Positions 971 to 16,485 are shown, numbered from the stretch's first letter. The stretch is DNA of 32,000 nt from Pseudomonas sp. PDM15 (GCF_014851565.1 NZ_JACVAA010000009.1:50333-82332), one strand, 5' to 3'. Program-made: numbers and translations. The notes: a model not told the origin generated them from the letters alone.

Positions 971-999
971 ATAATTAGGCACTTGTGCCTATATGTCAA
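971..999 (-). promoter_or_regulatory. sigma70-like promoter with perfect 16-bp palindromic operator TAGGCACTTGTGCCTA (976..991) in the spacer
   Basis: Read on the minus strand: TTGACA (999-994), a 17-nt spacer almost entirely made of the palindrome, then AATTAT (976-971). It lies 47 bp upstream of ATG 929. The same palindrome recurs at 4651..4666 and, with one central change, at 13622..13637. It is also 174 bp upstream of hipA. Confidence 0.65.
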
Positions 1000-3650: not shown

Positions 3651-4409
3651 TCAAGCCACAGCCTCGATACAGGCATCGTCCTGCACCGAGTAGCGATCTA
3701 CGGCGCTGGGCCGGGCAGTATTGAAGCCGGCTTCAATAGAGTTCTGCTTCGCGATCCAGTAGCTCTCGCGGTCCGTGAGGTAATCGGCTGTCGAGCAACC
3801 CTTCGGAAACTCAATCACCTCAAGCACCGAATACTCCCAGTCGGTCACCGGAGACGACCGCATCGCCTCATGGAATTTGCAGCCTGTCTGGTTCGTCATG
3901 TGCTGCCACCACCGCAGCGTAAACGGCTGGGTTGTTTGCCCCACGTACACTCGCCCAGTCGACCGCTGCCGAATCTGGTAGATCACCGCAGGCAACTTCC
4001 CTTCGTGGGTCAGCCGGAACTCCTGAACCTCACGGGCCTTTCCATCCACAGCACACCGCTGCGAGCAGTAATCAGGACCCTTGTGATCGGCGTGGTGGTC
4101 GTTGTACTTGTCGATCAGCCTGAAGGTGCTACCGCACTCCTTGCATACCGAATCGCGAAACCGCCGAAGGATGTAGTCGTTGCTGGGGTCCACTTCCTGG
4201 ATGTGGAGAAGGTACTCATGCTGCTCAACGTCAGCCCGAAGAACTCGAAGCGGGAACGTCCGGCCGTACTCCTCGTCAATCATCGCTTTGGCAGCCTTGC
4301 GATCAGCTGCCGAAACGAGCCCACTGAACACCGGGGGCCAGGCCCAGGGAGAATCCCCCTCGAACTCAGGCGGCCTGCGGCCTTTGATCTGATAGTAGAA
4401 GTCAGGCAT
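3651..4409 (-). CDS. GIY-YIG nuclease-domain protein with N-terminal domain and zinc ribbon, 252 aa
   Basis: The C-terminal half carries GIY-YIG hallmarks: AVIYQIRQRSTGRVYVGQTTQPFTLRWWQH, then ESYWIAKQNSIEAGFN. The central segment CKECGSTFRLIDKYNDHHADHKGPDYCSQRC is C-X2-C-X22-C-X3-C. The start is 4 nt after the stop of the upstream gene. Confidence 0.8.
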   Translation of the reverse strand: MPDFYYQIKGRRPPEFEGDSPWAWPPVFSGLVSAADRKAAKAMIDEEYGRTFPLRVLRADVEQHEYLLHIQEVDPSNDYILRRFRDSVCKECGSTFRLIDKYNDHHADHKGPDYCSQRCAVDGKAREVQEFRLTHEGKLPAVIYQIRQRSTGRVYVGQTTQPFTLRWWQHMTNQTGCKFHEAMRSSPVTDWEYSVLEVIEFPKGCSTADYLTDRESYWIAKQNSIEAGFNTARPSAVDRYSVQDDACIEAVA

Positions 4410-4646: not shown

Positions 4647-4675
4647 AAGATAGGCACTTGTGCCTACCCGGTCAA
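4647..4675 (-). promoter_or_regulatory. sigma70-like promoter with 16-bp palindromic operator TAGGCACTTGTGCCTA (4651..4666) in the spacer
   Basis: Read on the minus strand: TTGACC (4675-4670), a 17-nt spacer (GGG plus 14 nt of the palindrome), then TATCTT (4652-4647). It lies 31 bp upstream of ATG 4620. The palindrome is identical to the one at 976..991. Confidence 0.65.
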
Positions 4676-10420: not shown

Positions 10421-10729
10421 ATGGCAGAAATCTTCCCTTTTCCAGAAACATCCCGAACACACAACGCCAAGGTCATGGCCAACCAGGCCGAGCGCAAGCG
10501 GCTCGCCGAGTGGTTCAGGGCGATCGCACAACACATCGAGGGGAACGAAATAGAGCGGCTTCCCCTCGCCGCCATGATCGTCCTCTCTGGTGTCGAGGGC
10601 GATGAGGTTCTGCACGTCGGCTATCAGCAGCAGGAAGTCAGCCTGGCCCAGGCCGGCACGGCCGCACAACGCCTGGCGGCAGCGCCATATCCTCGCCGGG
10701 GCGGTAACTTCTTCGACAGACGACGCTGA
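10421..10729 (+). CDS. hypothetical protein, 102 aa
   Basis: Track ORF 10388..10729. The start is placed at ATG 10421 (MAEIFPFPE), just after the upstream stop at 10410. It is the last gene of the rightward block. Confidence 0.5.
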   Translation: MAEIFPFPETSRTHNAKVMANQAERKRLAEWFRAIAQHIEGNEIERLPLAAMIVLSGVEGDEVLHVGYQQQEVSLAQAGTAAQRLAAAPYPRRGGNFFDRRR

Positions 10730-10755
10730 TCGGGCACCGCCCTAACGTCAGCAGG

Positions 10756-11148
10756 TCAACGCCCAGGAGCCGCCTCATCAACGGAGGCCGGTCCGAAGCC
10801 GATATGCTGACCGGCCACTCCCGAACTCACGAGCTCCTGAAACTGGTCAACTGCATAGCAGGTCTCGCCGCCAACCATAGCGTCGCAGGTAGTGATTCGA
10901 AGATCGCCAGATGGCACCCACACGAGCTGGATGAAGGGGCCATAGAGGAATGAACAAGGCTGACGCGCAGCCTCGAAGTGATCGTCGAGCACGGCCATGA
11001 ACAGTTCTTTGTCGCGAAAGAACTTGGCGCCAAGGTCCTGGGCCATGGAATCGACCAACGCATTGATCTGCTCGCGGGGCAAATCTCGTACATTGACGAC
11101 GCAGGGGAGCCTGAAAGGGATCGGCGAGGGCTGCTTGATTGACTTCAT
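10756..11148 (-). CDS. hypothetical protein, 130 aa
   Basis: ATG 11148 with AGGA about 9 nt upstream. It is convergent with the rightward block across a 26-bp gap and is the last gene of the leftward operon from 13600. Confidence 0.6.
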   Translation of the reverse strand: MKSIKQPSPIPFRLPCVVNVRDLPREQINALVDSMAQDLGAKFFRDKELFMAVLDDHFEAARQPCSFLYGPFIQLVWVPSGDLRITTCDAMVGGETCYAVDQFQELVSSGVAGQHIGFGPASVDEAAPGR

Positions 11149-11225
11149 GTAGCGGGGTCCTATTCGGGCTCGTCGGCTGGCTCAGACTTGAACCACTGCG
11201 ACCTACAGTAACGGATCGTGACCTG

Positions 11226-11462
11226 TTATTCAGCCAGGTACAGAACGCGGCCCAAGCAGGTGCCTGAAATCATCGAGCAGGAAACCTCACCGTAAGGCTC
11301 AGCCGATGTACCTCGAATGTCGCAGTCTTTCCGAGTGCACTCGACCAAGAACGGCCGGGCCTCATCGCCAGTCAGTCCTACCTGCGACATGGCAAGCCCG
11401 TGCAGCGGGCAGCATCCGCTCCTCAATCTGTTCGCCCGGTCGCGGGCTGACTGCTTCGCCAT
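11226..11462 (-). CDS. hypothetical small Cys-rich protein, 78 aa
   Basis: Track ORF 11226..11579. The start is placed at ATG 11462 (MAKQSARD), 17 nt after the methyltransferase stop. It has 7 Cys. Confidence 0.45.
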   Translation of the reverse strand: MAKQSARDRANRLRSGCCPLHGLAMSQVGLTGDEARPFLVECTRKDCDIRGTSAEPYGEVSCSMISGTCLGRVLYLAE

Positions 11463-11478
11463 CAGAAACTCCAATCGA

Positions 11479-12747
11479 TCACCCCTGAGGGTGAAGCTCA
11501 CCAGGGCCGCCCAGAGAGGGGTTGATCCAGAACCCCTTGAACGGCCGGAAGAGTTCGGCCCCCCCGCGGATGTACTCAAGCATCAACTCCAGGCACAGCC
11601 AGCGGCGCTCATTGAGCTCCGCCGCCAGGCCTGTCATACAACGGCCACCGAATAAATCAACCACCAGATCTCCCGGCTCGGTCAGGAATCGAATGAAGAA
11701 GTCGGGAACCGATAGTGGCCACCCGGCTCCGTGTGTCGGCAGGTCCAGCGCCTGCAGGACACGTCGGTGCGCCCTGCCGATCGAACAAGCGTGGCCAATT
11801 TCAAGGACATTTCGCGGGATTCTCCCAGAGGTGAGGTTCCCATAGCTGCCCGAACGAATCCTGTAGGCACCATCGCCATACTCCGCATCGCGCCGCTCCC
11901 CGCCGGCGGCCATCAGCTTTTTGTGTCGTTCCGTATGCGGCAACAGCACGCGGCGATTATCGGCTTTACACCTCAGCGGATCCGGCGCCATCCACAAACA
12001 GGGTTCCCAACACACGTTCAGCTGATTTCGCGCCTTGCTCGCCCAGGCAACCGGGCCAGGCGCCTTCGAGCGATTTGCCCAAATTACCCTGTCCATCAGG
12101 TACAGCCCAAGCCGATCTTCCAGAGCGATGGTAACCCGTTCGAGATAGGTCGATCGCGCCGGAGATTTCTCAAGGAAGACATCGTTCGATAGATTCAGGA
12201 CTAGCGAACCCGTTGCGGCGATCTTCGGCACGATCGGTTCCAGAACTGCGCAGATGAAATCGACGTACTCCTCGCAGCGCGGGTTGCCGTAGGCCCGAGG
12301 GTTGCGCAAGGGATAGGGCGCCGAGGTGAGCAGCAACTCGATGGGCTCATCCAGCTTTGCCAGCGAATGCGGGCTTGTTCCCCAGAGAGCCATCCCAAGA
12401 TCGGTGCTGAATGCCAGTAGCGTCATCCCTGGCCGTGCCTTGTGAAGACCACTGCGCATTTTCTCTGTGAGCCGCCAGACCCCTCGCTCACCCGGGACAC
12501 GTTCGATAACCTGAAGATGCTTGAGTTGCTGCTGCTGCCAGCGAATAGCCCTCTTCGCCTTGCTGCGCAGTTTCCCCGCGGTGCCAATCGGCATGCGGTA
12601 GTTCAGCGTTGCGTCGTTGATACCTGCACGCTTTGCGACGAGCTTGTACAAACTCTCGTTATCGAGAGCGACATCTGGCGCGGCCTTGTAGACCTCTGCC
12701 ACATGGTGAAAGAGATTGAGCTGGCCGGCTGCCACCTGGTTGTCCAT
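11479..12747 (-). CDS. beta-class N4/N6 DNA methyltransferase, 422 aa
   Basis: Catalytic motif IV LLLTSAPYPL (a DPPY/SPPY-type motif) precedes the AdoMet motif I DLVVDLFGGRCMTGLAAELNERRWLCLEL near the C-terminus, which is the beta-class order. The start lies 5 nt after the stop of the upstream TGT-like gene. Confidence 0.85.
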   Translation of the reverse strand: MDNQVAAGQLNLFHHVAEVYKAAPDVALDNESLYKLVAKRAGINDATLNYRMPIGTAGKLRSKAKRAIRWQQQQLKHLQVIERVPGERGVWRLTEKMRSGLHKARPGMTLLAFSTDLGMALWGTSPHSLAKLDEPIELLLTSAPYPLRNPRAYGNPRCEEYVDFICAVLEPIVPKIAATGSLVLNLSNDVFLEKSPARSTYLERVTIALEDRLGLYLMDRVIWANRSKAPGPVAWASKARNQLNVCWEPCLWMAPDPLRCKADNRRVLLPHTERHKKLMAAGGERRDAEYGDGAYRIRSGSYGNLTSGRIPRNVLEIGHACSIGRAHRRVLQALDLPTHGAGWPLSVPDFFIRFLTEPGDLVVDLFGGRCMTGLAAELNERRWLCLELMLEYIRGGAELFRPFKGFWINPSLGGPGELHPQG

Positions 12748-12751
12748 TCGT

Positions 12752-13600
12752 TCACTCCGGCCTCAAGGGCCACCGACAGTCGTATGGCGTGTCTTCAATT
12801 GACGCCCTTGATAGCGCATACAGGTCCGCCTGATCGATGCGATGCTTCAGCGCCCCATCAAGCCTAGGTAGTGTGTTGGCAAACCGGGTAACACTCGTGC
12901 CATCGAACGAGCTCGCGTTCGCCGCGGCGCACATCGCGATGCGCTTGGCACTGTTGACGCGCCCGACGTGGAAGTAGCAGTTCCGACGGCGCGCCAGGAT
13001 CCCCCAGGCTTCCATCGTCTGCAGCTTCCACTCGGTACTGCCGCCCAGGAAGACCCCCACGGACGGGTTGAGGTAGTCGCGAACATCATCAGGGTGCATC
13101 CCGTCCTGAACGGCGATCAGCAGCGTGCGCGGGAATCCCTCCAATCGCTCCAACCACCTCAAGCTGAAATCCAGGGATGCCTGACCGCCGGCGACGATAT
13201 CCGGCAGGACTACCCAGTCCGCGCCCTCGCCCAGCTTGTCTACGGCCCGGCAGAACGCAATCTCACAAAATGGCCGCCCTTGCTGGAAGGCAGACCAGGC
13301 ACCGTTATCAAGCGCATAGCGGCTGAAACCTTCGGTGCGCAGAACTCCCGCGGCCGACACAAGCAGCCGCCATCCAGCGGCACGCATGGCATCGAGATTT
13401 CTCCTCGTGCCGGTGCGACTGGCGTAGGCCGTCATTGCCGGGGCCTGATAGCCGAGCCGCTCCTCAATTGAGGGATCGCCATCTGCCGAACCGTCCAGGC
13501 AGTAGTAATCGGCATACGCCAGCACCGCTTGCGCGTAGCCCTGCCTGGCCCCGGAACGATAAGCCTCAAGCCAGTTCGGCAGTTTGAACTCACTCATCAC
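12752..13600 (-). CDS. TGT-fold (tRNA-guanine transglycosylase / DpdA-like) protein, 282 aa
   Basis: The ordered motifs resemble TGT-family barrel signatures. YALDNGAWSAF resembles TDSGGFQ, and LIAVQDGM resembles IVQGG. GVFLGGSTEWK resembles AVGGLAVGE, YFHVGRVNSAKRI resembles YLMGVGTPDDI, and ASSFDGTSVTR resembles DMFDCVLPTR. There is no CxCxxC...H zinc site. This assignment rests on my memory of the motifs and was not checked by search. Confidence 0.5.
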   Translation of the reverse strand: MMSEFKLPNWLEAYRSGARQGYAQAVLAYADYYCLDGSADGDPSIEERLGYQAPAMTAYASRTGTRRNLDAMRAAGWRLLVSAAGVLRTEGFSRYALDNGAWSAFQQGRPFCEIAFCRAVDKLGEGADWVVLPDIVAGGQASLDFSLRWLERLEGFPRTLLIAVQDGMHPDDVRDYLNPSVGVFLGGSTEWKLQTMEAWGILARRRNCYFHVGRVNSAKRIAMCAAANASSFDGTSVTRFANTLPRLDGALKHRIDQADLYALSRASIEDTPYDCRWPLRPE

Positions 13601-13615
13601 GCTCTCGCTGACTTA

Positions 13616-13644
13616 GATAAATAGGCACTCGTGCCTAGTCTTAA
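13616..13644 (-). promoter_or_regulatory. candidate promoter with 16-bp palindromic operator TAGGCACTCGTGCCTA (13622..13637)
   Basis: Read on the minus strand: TTAAGA (13644-13639), a 17-nt spacer (1 nt plus the palindrome), then TTTATC (13621-16). The hexamers match consensus less well than at the other two sites. It lies 22 bp upstream of ATG 13600 and 19 bp upstream of the divergent start at 13656. Confidence 0.5.
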
Positions 13645-13655
13645 CGAAAAGCGAG

Positions 13656-14297
13656 ATGGCGCGCAACTATAAGCAATGGTATTCTTTTGAGACTACCAAC
13701 CGAAACAGGAACCGGCTCATGACCCTGCGCATGACACCCACGCGTTTCAACCTGCTCTACATGGCCGCCGCCATCCTGACGGCTGTTCTGCTTGCCCGTC
13801 AGTTCGGAACGATTTTCGCGCTGGGCGGCATCCTGGCCTACGGCATCTTCGTGCTGCTGGAAATCTTGTACGTCAAGCTGCCTCGCGGTTTGCAGCCGTT
13901 TGCTCCATGGCTGGTTCTCGCCGGATCCTTCGCAGCGGTTGCACTGGGGATGATCATTGCCGGCTCCGCTTTTGCAGAGAATGCGCCCCTGGAGACCCCG
14001 CCGCCGCCGAAGGAGGCGACTGCTCAGATCGAGACTACTGATGAGGCCGCCGCCGGCGCAGAAGCGATCGCCCGCATCTACCTACTGTTTCAACAGGAAT
14101 TGGCAGAGCGCGCCAAGAACAAGGACTTCGATCAGCTGAAGTGGATGCAGTCCATGCAAGGCTGCCTCAGTGACGTGAGCGCACCGAGCATTACGCCGGA
14201 CACGATGTCTTCCATCGCGGAGTGCGCGGATAAGCGCCTGGCCATGGCACAGATCCAAGTCAATCAAGCACCGACCGAGGAAGTACCAAAGCAATGA
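13656..14297 (+). CDS. membrane protein (3 N-terminal hydrophobic helices, soluble C-terminal domain), 213 aa
   Basis: Hydrophobic helices LLYMAAAILTAVLLA, IFALGGILAYGIFVLLEIL and WLVLAGSFAAVALGMIIAGSAF. An alternative start is ATG 13719 (CAGGAA SD). The stop overlaps the next start (ATGA at 14294-14297). Confidence 0.65.
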   Translation: MARNYKQWYSFETTNRNRNRLMTLRMTPTRFNLLYMAAAILTAVLLARQFGTIFALGGILAYGIFVLLEILYVKLPRGLQPFAPWLVLAGSFAAVALGMIIAGSAFAENAPLETPPPPKEATAQIETTDEAAAGAEAIARIYLLFQQELAERAKNKDFDQLKWMQSMQGCLSDVSAPSITPDTMSSIAECADKRLAMAQIQVNQAPTEEVPKQ

Positions 14298-14986: not shown

Positions 14987-15916
14987 TCATGGGCCGTCAT
15001 ATCCAGCCCCCGCGGGGGACAGCAGCTCATCCCGCCCCCGCGCGAAATCCGGGTAGGCTTCCTTGAGCTTCACCAGATCGGCAACTGCATGGCGAAGCCA
15101 CGCGCCTGCGAATGCCGGCTTGTTGGTAAACATCGTCGCCATCCGGCTGTCTACGAACCGAACCATCTCCGAGCAGAATTTTTCAGCAGCGTCAGGCGCC
15201 TGCATGCGCTCAACAGCTGCATCTAGACCGGCGAGGAACTCATCATCGGTACGTCCGTAGGACGCTACCTTCTGCGCCACCCAGTCGTAGTTCGGCTGAA
15301 TACCCTTCTGTGCCAGGAAGTGCACATCCCATACGTCCCTTGCCTTCAGGTGGGAGCGAAGCCCAAGCGCGACGAGCTTGTCCGAGTAGATCTCTTCCTG
15401 GCTCTCGGCCAGGACAACGATCCCCTGCAGACCCTGCTGATGCTCGTAGGGGCTGCGCAACACCACCGGGACAGCATCGAGCGAGGGCACGTTGCATACC
15501 TCGAAGTTGATGCGCTGCATCTGCGACTCCCAAGGCACCTTGATCTTGAACGTCCAACGCTTGACCCCAACGCCATCACCGAGATCGGTATTGGGGCCTG
15601 CGACGGCATCGAACTCAATGCCGTACCGGGTCTGCATAGCCTTTTGCAGGACAGAAGCCAGGTGCCCAACATCAAGCGGCTCCGGGGAGCCAGAGCCGCA
15701 CACGAAATCGAGGTCCTCCGACAGCCGCGTGCCGTCATAACAGGCCCGCAACGCAGTACCTCCCTGGAAGACCAGTCGATCGCCAAGATCGCTGTTCGAT
15801 AAGGCATTCAGGATTTCGTAATGCAAGATCTCCTTGAGAACAACCGGCTGAGCCAGCTGGTTGTCAGTCAAGCTCATCGCTTTCGTAACATGGTCCTTCA
15901 GTGTGTATGGGCTCAA
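14987..15916 (-). CDS. abiEii: AbiEii/AbiGii-family nucleotidyltransferase toxin (DUF1814), 309 aa
   Basis: N-terminal signature LVFQGGTALRACYDGTRLSEDLDF, which is the FKGGTAL...R.SEDIDF type. There is a 4-nt overlap with the upstream AbiEi-like gene. Confidence 0.85.
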   Translation of the reverse strand: MSPYTLKDHVTKAMSLTDNQLAQPVVLKEILHYEILNALSNSDLGDRLVFQGGTALRACYDGTRLSEDLDFVCGSGSPEPLDVGHLASVLQKAMQTRYGIEFDAVAGPNTDLGDGVGVKRWTFKIKVPWESQMQRINFEVCNVPSLDAVPVVLRSPYEHQQGLQGIVVLAESQEEIYSDKLVALGLRSHLKARDVWDVHFLAQKGIQPNYDWVAQKVASYGRTDDEFLAGLDAAVERMQAPDAAEKFCSEMVRFVDSRMATMFTNKPAFAGAWLRHAVADLVKLKEAYPDFARGRDELLSPAGAGYDGP

Positions 15917-16485
15917 GGGTGCCGCTCCTCCAGTAGATAGTCGTAGTTGCGTTCGGCTTCCGGACGCACCAGATCAAGATTCCTTCCGATCGCGGTCAGA
16001 TCAGCAAGTGCCAGCTCGGGTGTTGCAACCCGAATCTGTCGGATAGGGTCAAATCGTGTTTGCGAGAGCCGTGACTCCGAAAATTTATCGCCGGATACAC
16101 GATTGAACTCAATGATGCCAAGCGGGGTCTGATAGAGAGCAGAGCGTCCCGTGGTAACGAAGGTCATGCGGTTCGGGATCTGGCTGATCCAGTCGACCTC
16201 ATGAAGAACAGACTCCAGGGACAAATACGACGGCGATCCTGGACGAAGGATTGCGACTAGCTGGGCGAGACCATGGATAGGCGGATCTACACGAGGGTTA
16301 AGATAATGTCCTCGGAAAACCTTGCGGACGCCGACGATATCGGCGTTGCGGCCGAGGTAAACAACAAGTCCATGCTCATCTACGCCGCTCAGGCGAGACA
16401 GAGCCCGGACGTTAAATACCCAAACCCCCTTTGTCGCGAAGGCGTCCAAAGCCTTCAGCACCGAGGTGCGCGTGGATTGTCTCAT
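15913..16485 (-). CDS. abiEi: AbiEi-like antitoxin / transcriptional regulator, 190 aa
   Basis: The size, its position immediately upstream of and overlapping abiEii, and the pattern of an N-terminal winged-helix-like segment followed by a C-terminal domain (SYLSLESVLH...VATPELALADL) are typical of AbiEi. Confidence 0.75.
   Translation of the reverse strand: MRQSTRTSVLKALDAFATKGVWVFNVRALSRLSGVDEHGLVVYLGRNADIVGVRKVFRGHYLNPRVDPPIHGLAQLVAILRPGSPSYLSLESVLHEVDWISQIPNRMTFVTTGRSALYQTPLGIIEFNRVSGDKFSESRLSQTRFDPIRQIRVATPELALADLTAIGRNLDLVRPEAERNYDYLLEERHP

Follow-up and report, generated by a model that had tools for sequence, protein, structure and literature searches.

Can a plasmid mark its own DNA with a base taken from the queuosine pathway of its host? 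The question is raised by a short run of genes at positions 10756 to 13644 of a 32,000-nucleotide stretch of Pseudomonas sp. PDM15 (GCF_014851565.1, NZ_JACVAA010000009.1:50333-82332), referred to here as the window. The first gene (12752..13600, minus strand) encodes a protein of 282 amino acids counted from GTG, or 281 from the ATG start used in the related Pseudomonas aeruginosa plasmid pF023. Four nucleotides separate its stop codon from the ATG of the second gene (11479..12747, minus strand), which encodes a 422-amino-acid beta-class DNA methyltransferase homologous to M.PvuII. An initial annotation had described the two as translationally adjacent, which the open reading frame (ORF) list bears out, and had likened the first product to the tRNA-guanine transglycosylases (TGT) and to the DpdA enzymes. 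Its description of the sequence is confirmed, and its interpretation is supported in large part though not in full. Modification of DNA with 7-deazaguanine is known in phages and in the bacterial Dpd defence system but is not known in plasmids. Literature searches also found no plasmid-borne 7-deazaguanine system. By analogy with characterised enzymes, the reading favoured here, with a probability of roughly 0.55, is that the 282-residue protein acts as a DpdA-type transglycosylase using 7-deazaguanine from the host, alongside an independent methyltransferase producing N4-methylcytosine (m4C), that the pair serves anti-restriction and that a repressor acting at a palindrome controls both.

Family, gene context and predicted fold

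The 282-residue protein matches no relevant model in Pfam, NCBIfam or PADLOC. It does match phrog_15826 (E=2.9e-45; residues 57-253 against positions 2-199 of 212), a family listed as of unknown function. The family is large: a word-indexed search retrieved 3,693 proteins, all named 'hypothetical' save one UniRef entry, a queuine tRNA-ribosyltransferase, and an exhaustive search gave 2,810 clusters at 50% identity. A typical member has about 210 amino acids and spans residues 56-252 of the plasmid protein, whose residues 1-55 form an N-terminal extension confined to a plasmid and proteobacterial clade (Pseudomonas and Burkholderiaceae). One larger protein, P0245 (912 amino acids), joins the family domain to a PD-(D/E)XK nuclease domain.

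Gene context provides the strongest evidence for a DpdA-type role. Neighbourhoods were compared at 73 genome loci and 80 IMG/VR viral loci encoding relatives. At 32 of the 80 viral loci, the family gene lies directly beside a same-strand gene for QueC, QueD, QueE, FolE or YhhQ, mostly overlapping it by a few bases or lying within about 100 nucleotides. The neighbour is QueC at 19 viral loci, a QueD-like protein at nine, QueE at four, FolE at one and the preQ0 transporter YhhQ at two; these counts sum to 35 rather than 32 because L088 and L105 each have more than one such gene, the gene order in L105 being QueC-homolog-QueD-QueE. The QueC neighbour at L139 matches the Pfam QueC family at 3.8e-44. 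Moreover, in P0290, a 433-amino-acid phage protein, the family domain is fused to QueC (Pfam 9e-36); its gene is located on a TARA (marine phage) contig together with terminase and portal genes. Neither a CAjan-type DpdA nor a TGT was detectable in the que-linked loci. An alignment of the plasmid protein with 31 que-linked homologs has 35 positions at which all 32 sequences agree. Every candidate pocket residue is among them, including all three aspartates discussed below, and so are D98, N99, G100, P133, D134, Q165, G186, G187, H211, R214, N216, D233 and G234. The que linkage, together with the shared pocket residues, suggests that the family is of DpdA type and that the plasmid protein keeps the same base chemistry.

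The predicted structure agrees with the TGT-like barrel first proposed. The AlphaFold2 (AF2) model (predicted local distance difference test score 86.7, predicted template modelling score 0.88) has eight strands, and a minimal TIM (triosephosphate isomerase) barrel can be assigned to it with confidence. The five TGT-like motifs named in the initial annotation are all present and in the order given: LDNGAW (97-102), VQDG (164-167), FLGGS (184-188), HVGRVNS (211-217) and FDGTS (232-236). Across 100 diverse family members P133, D134, Q165, G187, H211 and D233 are invariant, G234 is invariant or nearly so, and conservation reaches 90% or more at D98-N99-G100-A101-W102, G186, R214, V215 and N216; the motifs are therefore not chance strings. 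In the model the conserved residues are found where strands 3, 4, 5, 6, 7 and 8 end on their C-terminal side. D98, D134 and D233 lie at the ends of β3, β4 and β8, respectively, the positions that in the TGT superfamily hold the aspartates for general acid/base catalysis, base recognition and nucleophilic attack.

A weak Pfam match to DUF3151 covers about 25 residues (53-78; window ~13367-13444). The same match was seen in 14 of the 100 members and in eight of ten further relatives, in every case on the invariant YASRTGT segment at strand 1 (ASRTGT), and is probably a spurious, local resemblance due to chance.

Some relatives have already been annotated in phages. In tblastn searches, the plasmid protein shows 37% identity (E=5e-8) to proteins of about 200 amino acids from cluster P mycobacteriophages and Arthrobacter phages. 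One of them, gp55 of Mycobacterium phage GreaseLightnin, aligns with the family profile in hhalign at 99.5% probability (E=4e-23), belongs to phrog_15826 at E=1.8e-117 and was named by its depositors 'DpdA-like tRNA-guanine transglycosylase'. The SEA-PHAGES DpdA-like proteins, which include gp81 of Arthrobacter phage Sonali, thus belong to the same family and are also encoded by lone genes with a DNA methylase gene nearby, but they are about 200 amino acids long, lack the 55-residue N-terminal extension and were annotated by prediction only. The Erythrobacter phage ZS04 gene 101 (L162 6007-6648) encodes a 52%-identical homolog labelled 'DarB-like antirestriction protein' by its depositors; its counterpart in phage vB_EliS_R6L is labelled hypothetical. 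No experimental study of the phrog_15826 family was found in the searchable literature.

Comparison with known transglycosylases

Two sets of results weigh against the assignment to DpdA. The first is direct comparison. The protein has no match to PF01702, the Pfam TGT family, at E<=10, and does not match the NCBIfam DpdA model; PF01702 is touched by only five of 100 family members (best E=1.9e-4) and, in a Pfam scan, by none of ten further relatives, nine of which are que-linked. HMMER searches of the PDB, run with the sequence alone and with two profiles of the family, returned no TGT or DpdA. With hhalign, the family profile gives E=0.0098 and a probability of 4% against E. coli TGT, and E=0.0027 and 11% against a 26-sequence profile of the DpdA of Escherichia phage CAjan; such probabilities of only 4-11%, with single sequence or profile, are weak. 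In Foldseek searches of the PDB, generic TIM barrels outrank TGT.

The second set concerns the surroundings of the gene. A que neighbour was found at just one of the 73 genome loci, and none lies near the plasmid-clade homologs. Bacterial DpdA depends on the ATPase DpdB (PMC10164549), and no such partner was found among the 18 window ORFs scanned: neither DpdB (ParB-like) nor any other Dpd family was matched by these ORFs in Pfam or by the four analysed with PADLOC. A further point is the association with the methyltransferase, which the initial annotation had treated as a pair. Homologs are carried by 173 PLSDB plasmids, 146 of them from Pseudomonas, including pTTS12 and P. aeruginosa megaplasmids of 365-530 kb; all are annotated as hypothetical, and those inspected are lone genes amid small unknown genes. 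An M.PvuII-like gene occurs nearby only in the lineage of pF023 and the plasmid pNY5530-NR1 (pNY5530) and at two viral loci; the 170-odd other plasmids carry the transglycosylase-like gene with no adjoining M.PvuII-like methyltransferase in the regions inspected. In pNY5530 itself (L164 3600-5659) the methyltransferase is split by an inserted gene and appears in the annotation in two pieces; a gene on the opposite strand lies between it and the upstream transglycosylase-like gene, which is intact, as is the palindrome. The idea of a conserved transglycosylase-methyltransferase module was consequently rejected, the pairing being local to one plasmid lineage.

The lone-gene relatives in mycobacteriophages belong to this second set as well. 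In cluster P phages a single family gene precedes a DNA methylase gene by 1.2 kb (L161; GreaseLightnin 36922-39948). The situation is that of phage Orion, which encodes a singleton DpdA and is reported to have no 7-deazaguanine in its DNA; Mycobacterium is reported to lack the preQ0 pathway, and functional divergence of singleton DpdAs has been raised as a possibility (PMC6884629, Hutinet et al.). The mycobacteriophage enzymes of the present family may either be idle or use another substrate.

Other partners of the family vary. At 28 loci, mostly from Burkholderiaceae, a PP-loop protein of about 600 amino acids, resembling 3'-phosphoadenosine 5'-phosphosulfate (PAPS) reductase, is encoded immediately downstream of the homolog; other N6_N4 methyltransferases accompany family members at 12 loci and C5 methyltransferases at nine. 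In Paraburkholderia, Caballeronia and Burkholderia (L004 8922-10733, L042 8899-10707 and 26 further loci) the PP-loop gene lies within about 80 nucleotides, and the block also contains SbcC/SbcD-like, phospholipase D (PLD)-type nuclease and NADAR genes. The PP-loop enzyme may replace QueC in function or act on the base once it has been inserted.

The plasmid clade might be a branch of the TGT superfamily with a diverged substrate, exchanging or removing a different DNA base, or might work simply as a DNA glycosylase, for instance on the modified DNA of incoming phages. The 72 of 73 genome and plasmid loci that have no que neighbour, the singleton relatives in phages of hosts lacking the pathway, the divergence already suggested for singleton DpdAs (PMC6884629), the variable partners with their PP-loop protein and the single nuclease fusion would all fit. 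However, the candidate pocket residues are all identical to those of the que-linked phage enzymes, which argues for the same base chemistry. In addition, Pseudomonas and Burkholderiaceae make both preQ0 and preQ1. A diverged substrate is therefore considered rather unlikely, and a DpdA-type activity is preferred.

The direct comparisons, weak as they are, are coherent. The hhalign alignments to E. coli TGT and to CAjan DpdA share one register, in which D98 corresponds to the first catalytic aspartate (CAjan D63), D134 to the second (D105), Q165 to the Q/H position (H132) and G186-G187 to the GG pair (CAjan pocket residues from PMC7544227); the alignment to E. coli TGT also places D233, at low confidence, on the nucleophile in 'MFDC'. 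Comparison with PF01702 and DpdA profiles, a check proposed in the initial annotation, thus yielded no Pfam match and a weak similarity (E=0.003-0.01) that is nevertheless in register. The missing Pfam match says little, because homologs of the experimentally validated CAjan DpdA likewise have no precomputed Pfam domain.

Structural searches give a similar picture. All Foldseek matches in the PDB are TIM barrels, among which the TGT 3ge7 ranks 30th (E=4e-4); of the top 50 it has the lowest root mean square deviation and the highest identity, and it ties for the highest query TM-score. Against viral models, one match from the same family is followed by several phage 'queuine tRNA-ribosyltransferases' (E ~1e-6 to 1e-4). 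Since barrels of the aldolase and TrpA types score as well as TGT or better in both Foldseek and HMMER, the protein might be an unrelated small-molecule enzyme whose resemblance to TGT is convergent. This is very improbable: four 7-deazaguanine pathway genes and YhhQ adjoin homologs in the 32 viral loci, one homolog is fused to QueC, the motif register agrees with TGT and DpdA in independent alignments, and a metabolic enzyme in such a setting would itself be one of deazapurine chemistry.

One of the closest known systems is phage DpdA (DpdA1; CAjan gp35 and its phage 9g counterpart), an enzyme that inserts preQ0 into DNA. The two TIM barrels are of similar size (306 and 282 amino acids), and CAjan D63/D105/H132/G153-154/D206 and D98/D134/Q165/G186-187/D233 follow the same order with similar spacing; both have relatives embedded in que clusters. 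They differ in that CAjan DpdA is assigned to PHROGs 887 and 7068 rather than 15826, with no BLAST-level similarity and an hhalign E-value of 0.003, in the glutamine that replaces the pocket histidine, and in the location of the 282-residue protein on a plasmid without que genes.

The absence of a zinc site, pointed out at the outset, is borne out and is informative. The six cysteines (C33, C112, C118, C208, C224 and C275) do not form the CxCxxC...H motif, for which the sequence was inspected, and the consensus of CAjan-type phage DpdAs also lacks the site. The zinc criterion therefore excludes bacterial DpdA (bDpdA) and TGT proper, and not phage-type DpdA. Some features of bDpdA are nonetheless shared. 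In the Salmonella Montevideo enzyme, which acts on DNA, the general acid/base Asp95 directly precedes the β3/α3 insertion, the nucleophile Asp256 directly precedes the β8/α8 insertion, and Phe99 lies four residues after Asp95 (PMC10164549). All three active-site aspartates have counterparts in the plasmid protein, two of them at matching strand ends: in the AF2 model D98 ends β3 and D233 ends β8, and W102 provides an aromatic residue four positions past D98. Unlike bDpdA, the plasmid protein has neither a CXCX2CX22H zinc site nor the four large insertions, and its locus contains neither the ParB-like ATPase DpdB nor the 11-gene dpd cluster.

The same features bear on the target. Membership of the TGT superfamily, and the one homolog named queuine tRNA-ribosyltransferase, would be compatible with a tRNA-guanine transglycosylase that reprograms host translation rather than acting on DNA. 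Yet the protein has no zinc site, no beta-sheet lid and none of the tRNA-binding insertions of TGT, the core of about 200 residues is far below the 375 amino acids of TGT, a DNA methyltransferase gene adjoins, and the phage relatives lie in clusters like those of DNA-modifying phages. A tRNA target is accordingly judged highly unlikely, and DNA remains the preferred substrate.

Membership of another known DpdA group was also considered. Two tblastn searches with the family did not recover the Cellulophaga and Campylobacter phages that carry DpdA3, and identity with DpdA3 was set aside on this absence of carrier phages, not on a direct comparison with DpdA3. The 2019 census of DpdA-encoding viruses includes no phage carrying phrog_15826. 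The minimal subfamily would be distinct from bDpdA, from DpdA1 and, as judged by tblastn, from the DpdA3-carrying phages; DpdA2 and DpdA4 were not compared directly.

Methyltransferase, candidate operator and plasmid

The second protein of the operon is a clear homolog of M.PvuII, an N4-cytosine methyltransferase (PDB 1boo), to which residues 112-398 align at E=1.2e-43. The similarity extends across the whole catalytic domain: TSAPY aligns with TSPPF of M.PvuII and the S-adenosylmethionine (SAM) motif DLFGGRCMTG with DIFGGSNTTG, and catalytic motif IV, of the Ser type in both enzymes, precedes SAM motif I in the beta-class order. Pfam N6_N4_Mtase (PF01555; 1.1e-14) and the PADLOC MTase_II model (2.8e-50) are also matched. 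The plasmid enzyme differs from M.PvuII in its SAPY motif, in place of SPPF, and in an additional N-terminal Mrr_N-like winged-helix domain, which is a weak match (7e-5). Most of 120 homologs have SPPY at this motif, SAPY being found in a minority. The view that the SAPY motif belongs with the SPPY N4-cytosine type is upheld by the M.PvuII alignment; the motif IV serine and this homology make m4C the probable product.

The initial annotation counted two small genes downstream, which needs correcting: of the two small ORFs that follow on the same strand, one is doubtful and only the other is annotated in relatives. The last gene of the run (10756..11148) encodes a 130-amino-acid protein without assigned function, matching nothing in Pfam, NCBIfam, PHROG, PADLOC or the PDB; it is annotated in the related plasmids and, by tblastn, occurs in only those two among PLSDB plasmids. 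The other (11226..11462), a cysteine-rich ORF of 78 amino acids from ATG or 117 from an upstream TTG, has no family match in Pfam, NCBIfam, PHROG or PADLOC and sits in a segment of about 190 bp that is absent from pF023 and replaced in pNY5530 by an unrelated 69-amino-acid gene, as judged from a three-way alignment (window 11149-11478, L001 15450-15589 and L164 3351-3599). The segment is flanked by a direct repeat of about 45 bp, and the spacer between the methyltransferase and the 130-amino-acid gene varies in content between the plasmids. Both small downstream ORFs are lineage-specific, and neither belongs to a conserved module.

The palindromic operator proposed for the operon is confirmed as a sequence and is a candidate operator. 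The palindrome TAGGCACNNGTGCCTA lies at 13622-13637, 21 nucleotides upstream of the gene for the 282-residue protein; this sequence (TAGGCACTCGTGCCTA) is a perfect 16-bp palindrome situated between the operon and its divergent neighbours. Three exact copies occur in the window, against 0.08 expected, the others at 976..991, upstream of a HipA-family kinase gene, and at 4651..4666, upstream of a small gene and a GIY-YIG nuclease gene (3651-4409, minus strand). The palindrome is the sole element conserved among the three sites. It is kept at the same places in pF023, as well as upstream of the pNY5530 homolog, and is absent from 49 kb of the pF023 transfer and replication region. A promoter scan found no sigma-70 consensus promoter in the operon region. 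Because the palindrome lies upstream of three unrelated accessory operons, a common repressor may be envisaged, and the arrangement suggests a small regulon of accessory operons under one plasmid repressor.

The carrier appears to be a conjugative-type plasmid. Window positions 10700-13700 match two P. aeruginosa plasmids of about 190 kb, pF023 (NZ_CP115264.1) at 95% identity and pNY5530-NR1 at 91%. In pF023, the region 119000-168000 encodes the replication initiator TrfA, a Dot/Icm-type type IV secretion system with homologs of DotD, DotH, DotI and IcmB, a type IV coupling protein and a type IV pilus; it also contains genes for a 600-amino-acid C5 cytosine methyltransferase and a topoisomerase. 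Given its secretion, coupling and pilus genes, pF023 is taken as a conjugative-type plasmid despite its MOB-suite classification as non-mobilizable; it looks like an IncI-like (MPF_I) conjugative plasmid whose relaxase is unrecognised.

The accessory region around the locus also contains HipA, AbiEii, Abi and GIY-YIG genes. An AbiEii-family nucleotidyltransferase toxin (14987-16485, minus strand; Pfam 7.5e-29) is encoded by a gene overlapping an upstream 190-amino-acid gene, presumably its antitoxin, and this pair is located directly beside the divergent neighbours of the transglycosylase-methyltransferase operon.

In such surroundings, the two genes could work with an unrecognised nuclease in defence, as a restriction-modification system or one resembling Dpd, with self DNA marked and unmarked DNA attacked. 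The wealth of defence and toxin genes (AbiEii, HipA, Abi), the PADLOC classification of the methyltransferase as a type II MTase and the operator palindrome shared with the GIY-YIG nuclease gene (3651-4409) could be taken in this sense. Against it, no cognate restriction endonuclease was found beside the methyltransferase, where the downstream ORFs have no family or PDB match, no nuclease signature and no conservation; no counterpart of R.PvuII or C.PvuII is present at the locus; and the 18 window ORFs examined in Pfam and the four in PADLOC include no DpdB-K-like genes. Moreover, the methyltransferase is disrupted in pNY5530 and yet the plasmid persists, whereas an active cognate endonuclease would make its loss lethal. 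A defence system is thus quite improbable. The methyltransferase is most likely an orphan, located beside a gene for DNA modification dependent on host preQ0.

A possible route to modified plasmid DNA

By analogy with TGT and DpdA, the 282-residue protein would be a stripped-down DNA guanine transglycosylase. A guanine would be flipped from the DNA duplex, with Asp98 at the end of β3 as general acid/base, and exchanged for a 7-deazaguanine. The base, preQ0 or preQ1, would be supplied by the queuosine pathway of Pseudomonas. A host source is proposed because the plasmid encodes no preQ0 pathway and que neighbours occur at one of 73 genome loci: the window contains no preQ0 biosynthesis genes, as noted at the outset, since tblastn with E. 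coli and CAjan queries detected none of QueC, QueD, QueE, FolE and YhhQ at E<=1e-3, and none was found in 82 kb of pF023 at E<=1e-2. There is precedent for such a supply, as the DpdA of phage 9g, expressed alone in E. coli, put host preQ0 into plasmid DNA (PMC6884629). The co-transcribed M.PvuII-type methyltransferase would independently place another mark, probably m4C, at sites of its own, and both marks together would make the plasmid DNA refractory to restriction. Expression would probably be set by a plasmid repressor binding the palindrome common to two other accessory operons.

For the family as a whole, a broader proposal can be put forward tentatively. An uncharacterised minimal DpdA subfamily, with a core of about 200 residues, may provide the transglycosylase of the que clusters of many uncultured phages; its gene, captured alone by at least 173 plasmids, may use host queuosine precursors to place 7-deazaguanine in plasmid DNA and so favour escape from restriction during conjugation. 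If active, the subfamily would account for the transglycosylase that many phage que clusters lack and would be the smallest known DpdA scaffold.

If this broader proposal is true, it would describe the first plasmid-borne DNA hypermodification of the 7-deazaguanine kind and a broad anti-restriction device in conjugative spread: one small active gene would let conjugative plasmids mark their DNA with queuosine precursors of the host. Carriers include clinically important multidrug-resistance megaplasmids of Pseudomonas, and such a mark would have consequences for restriction barriers, for the host range of the plasmids and for nanopore or single-molecule real-time (SMRT) base-calling of these replicons.

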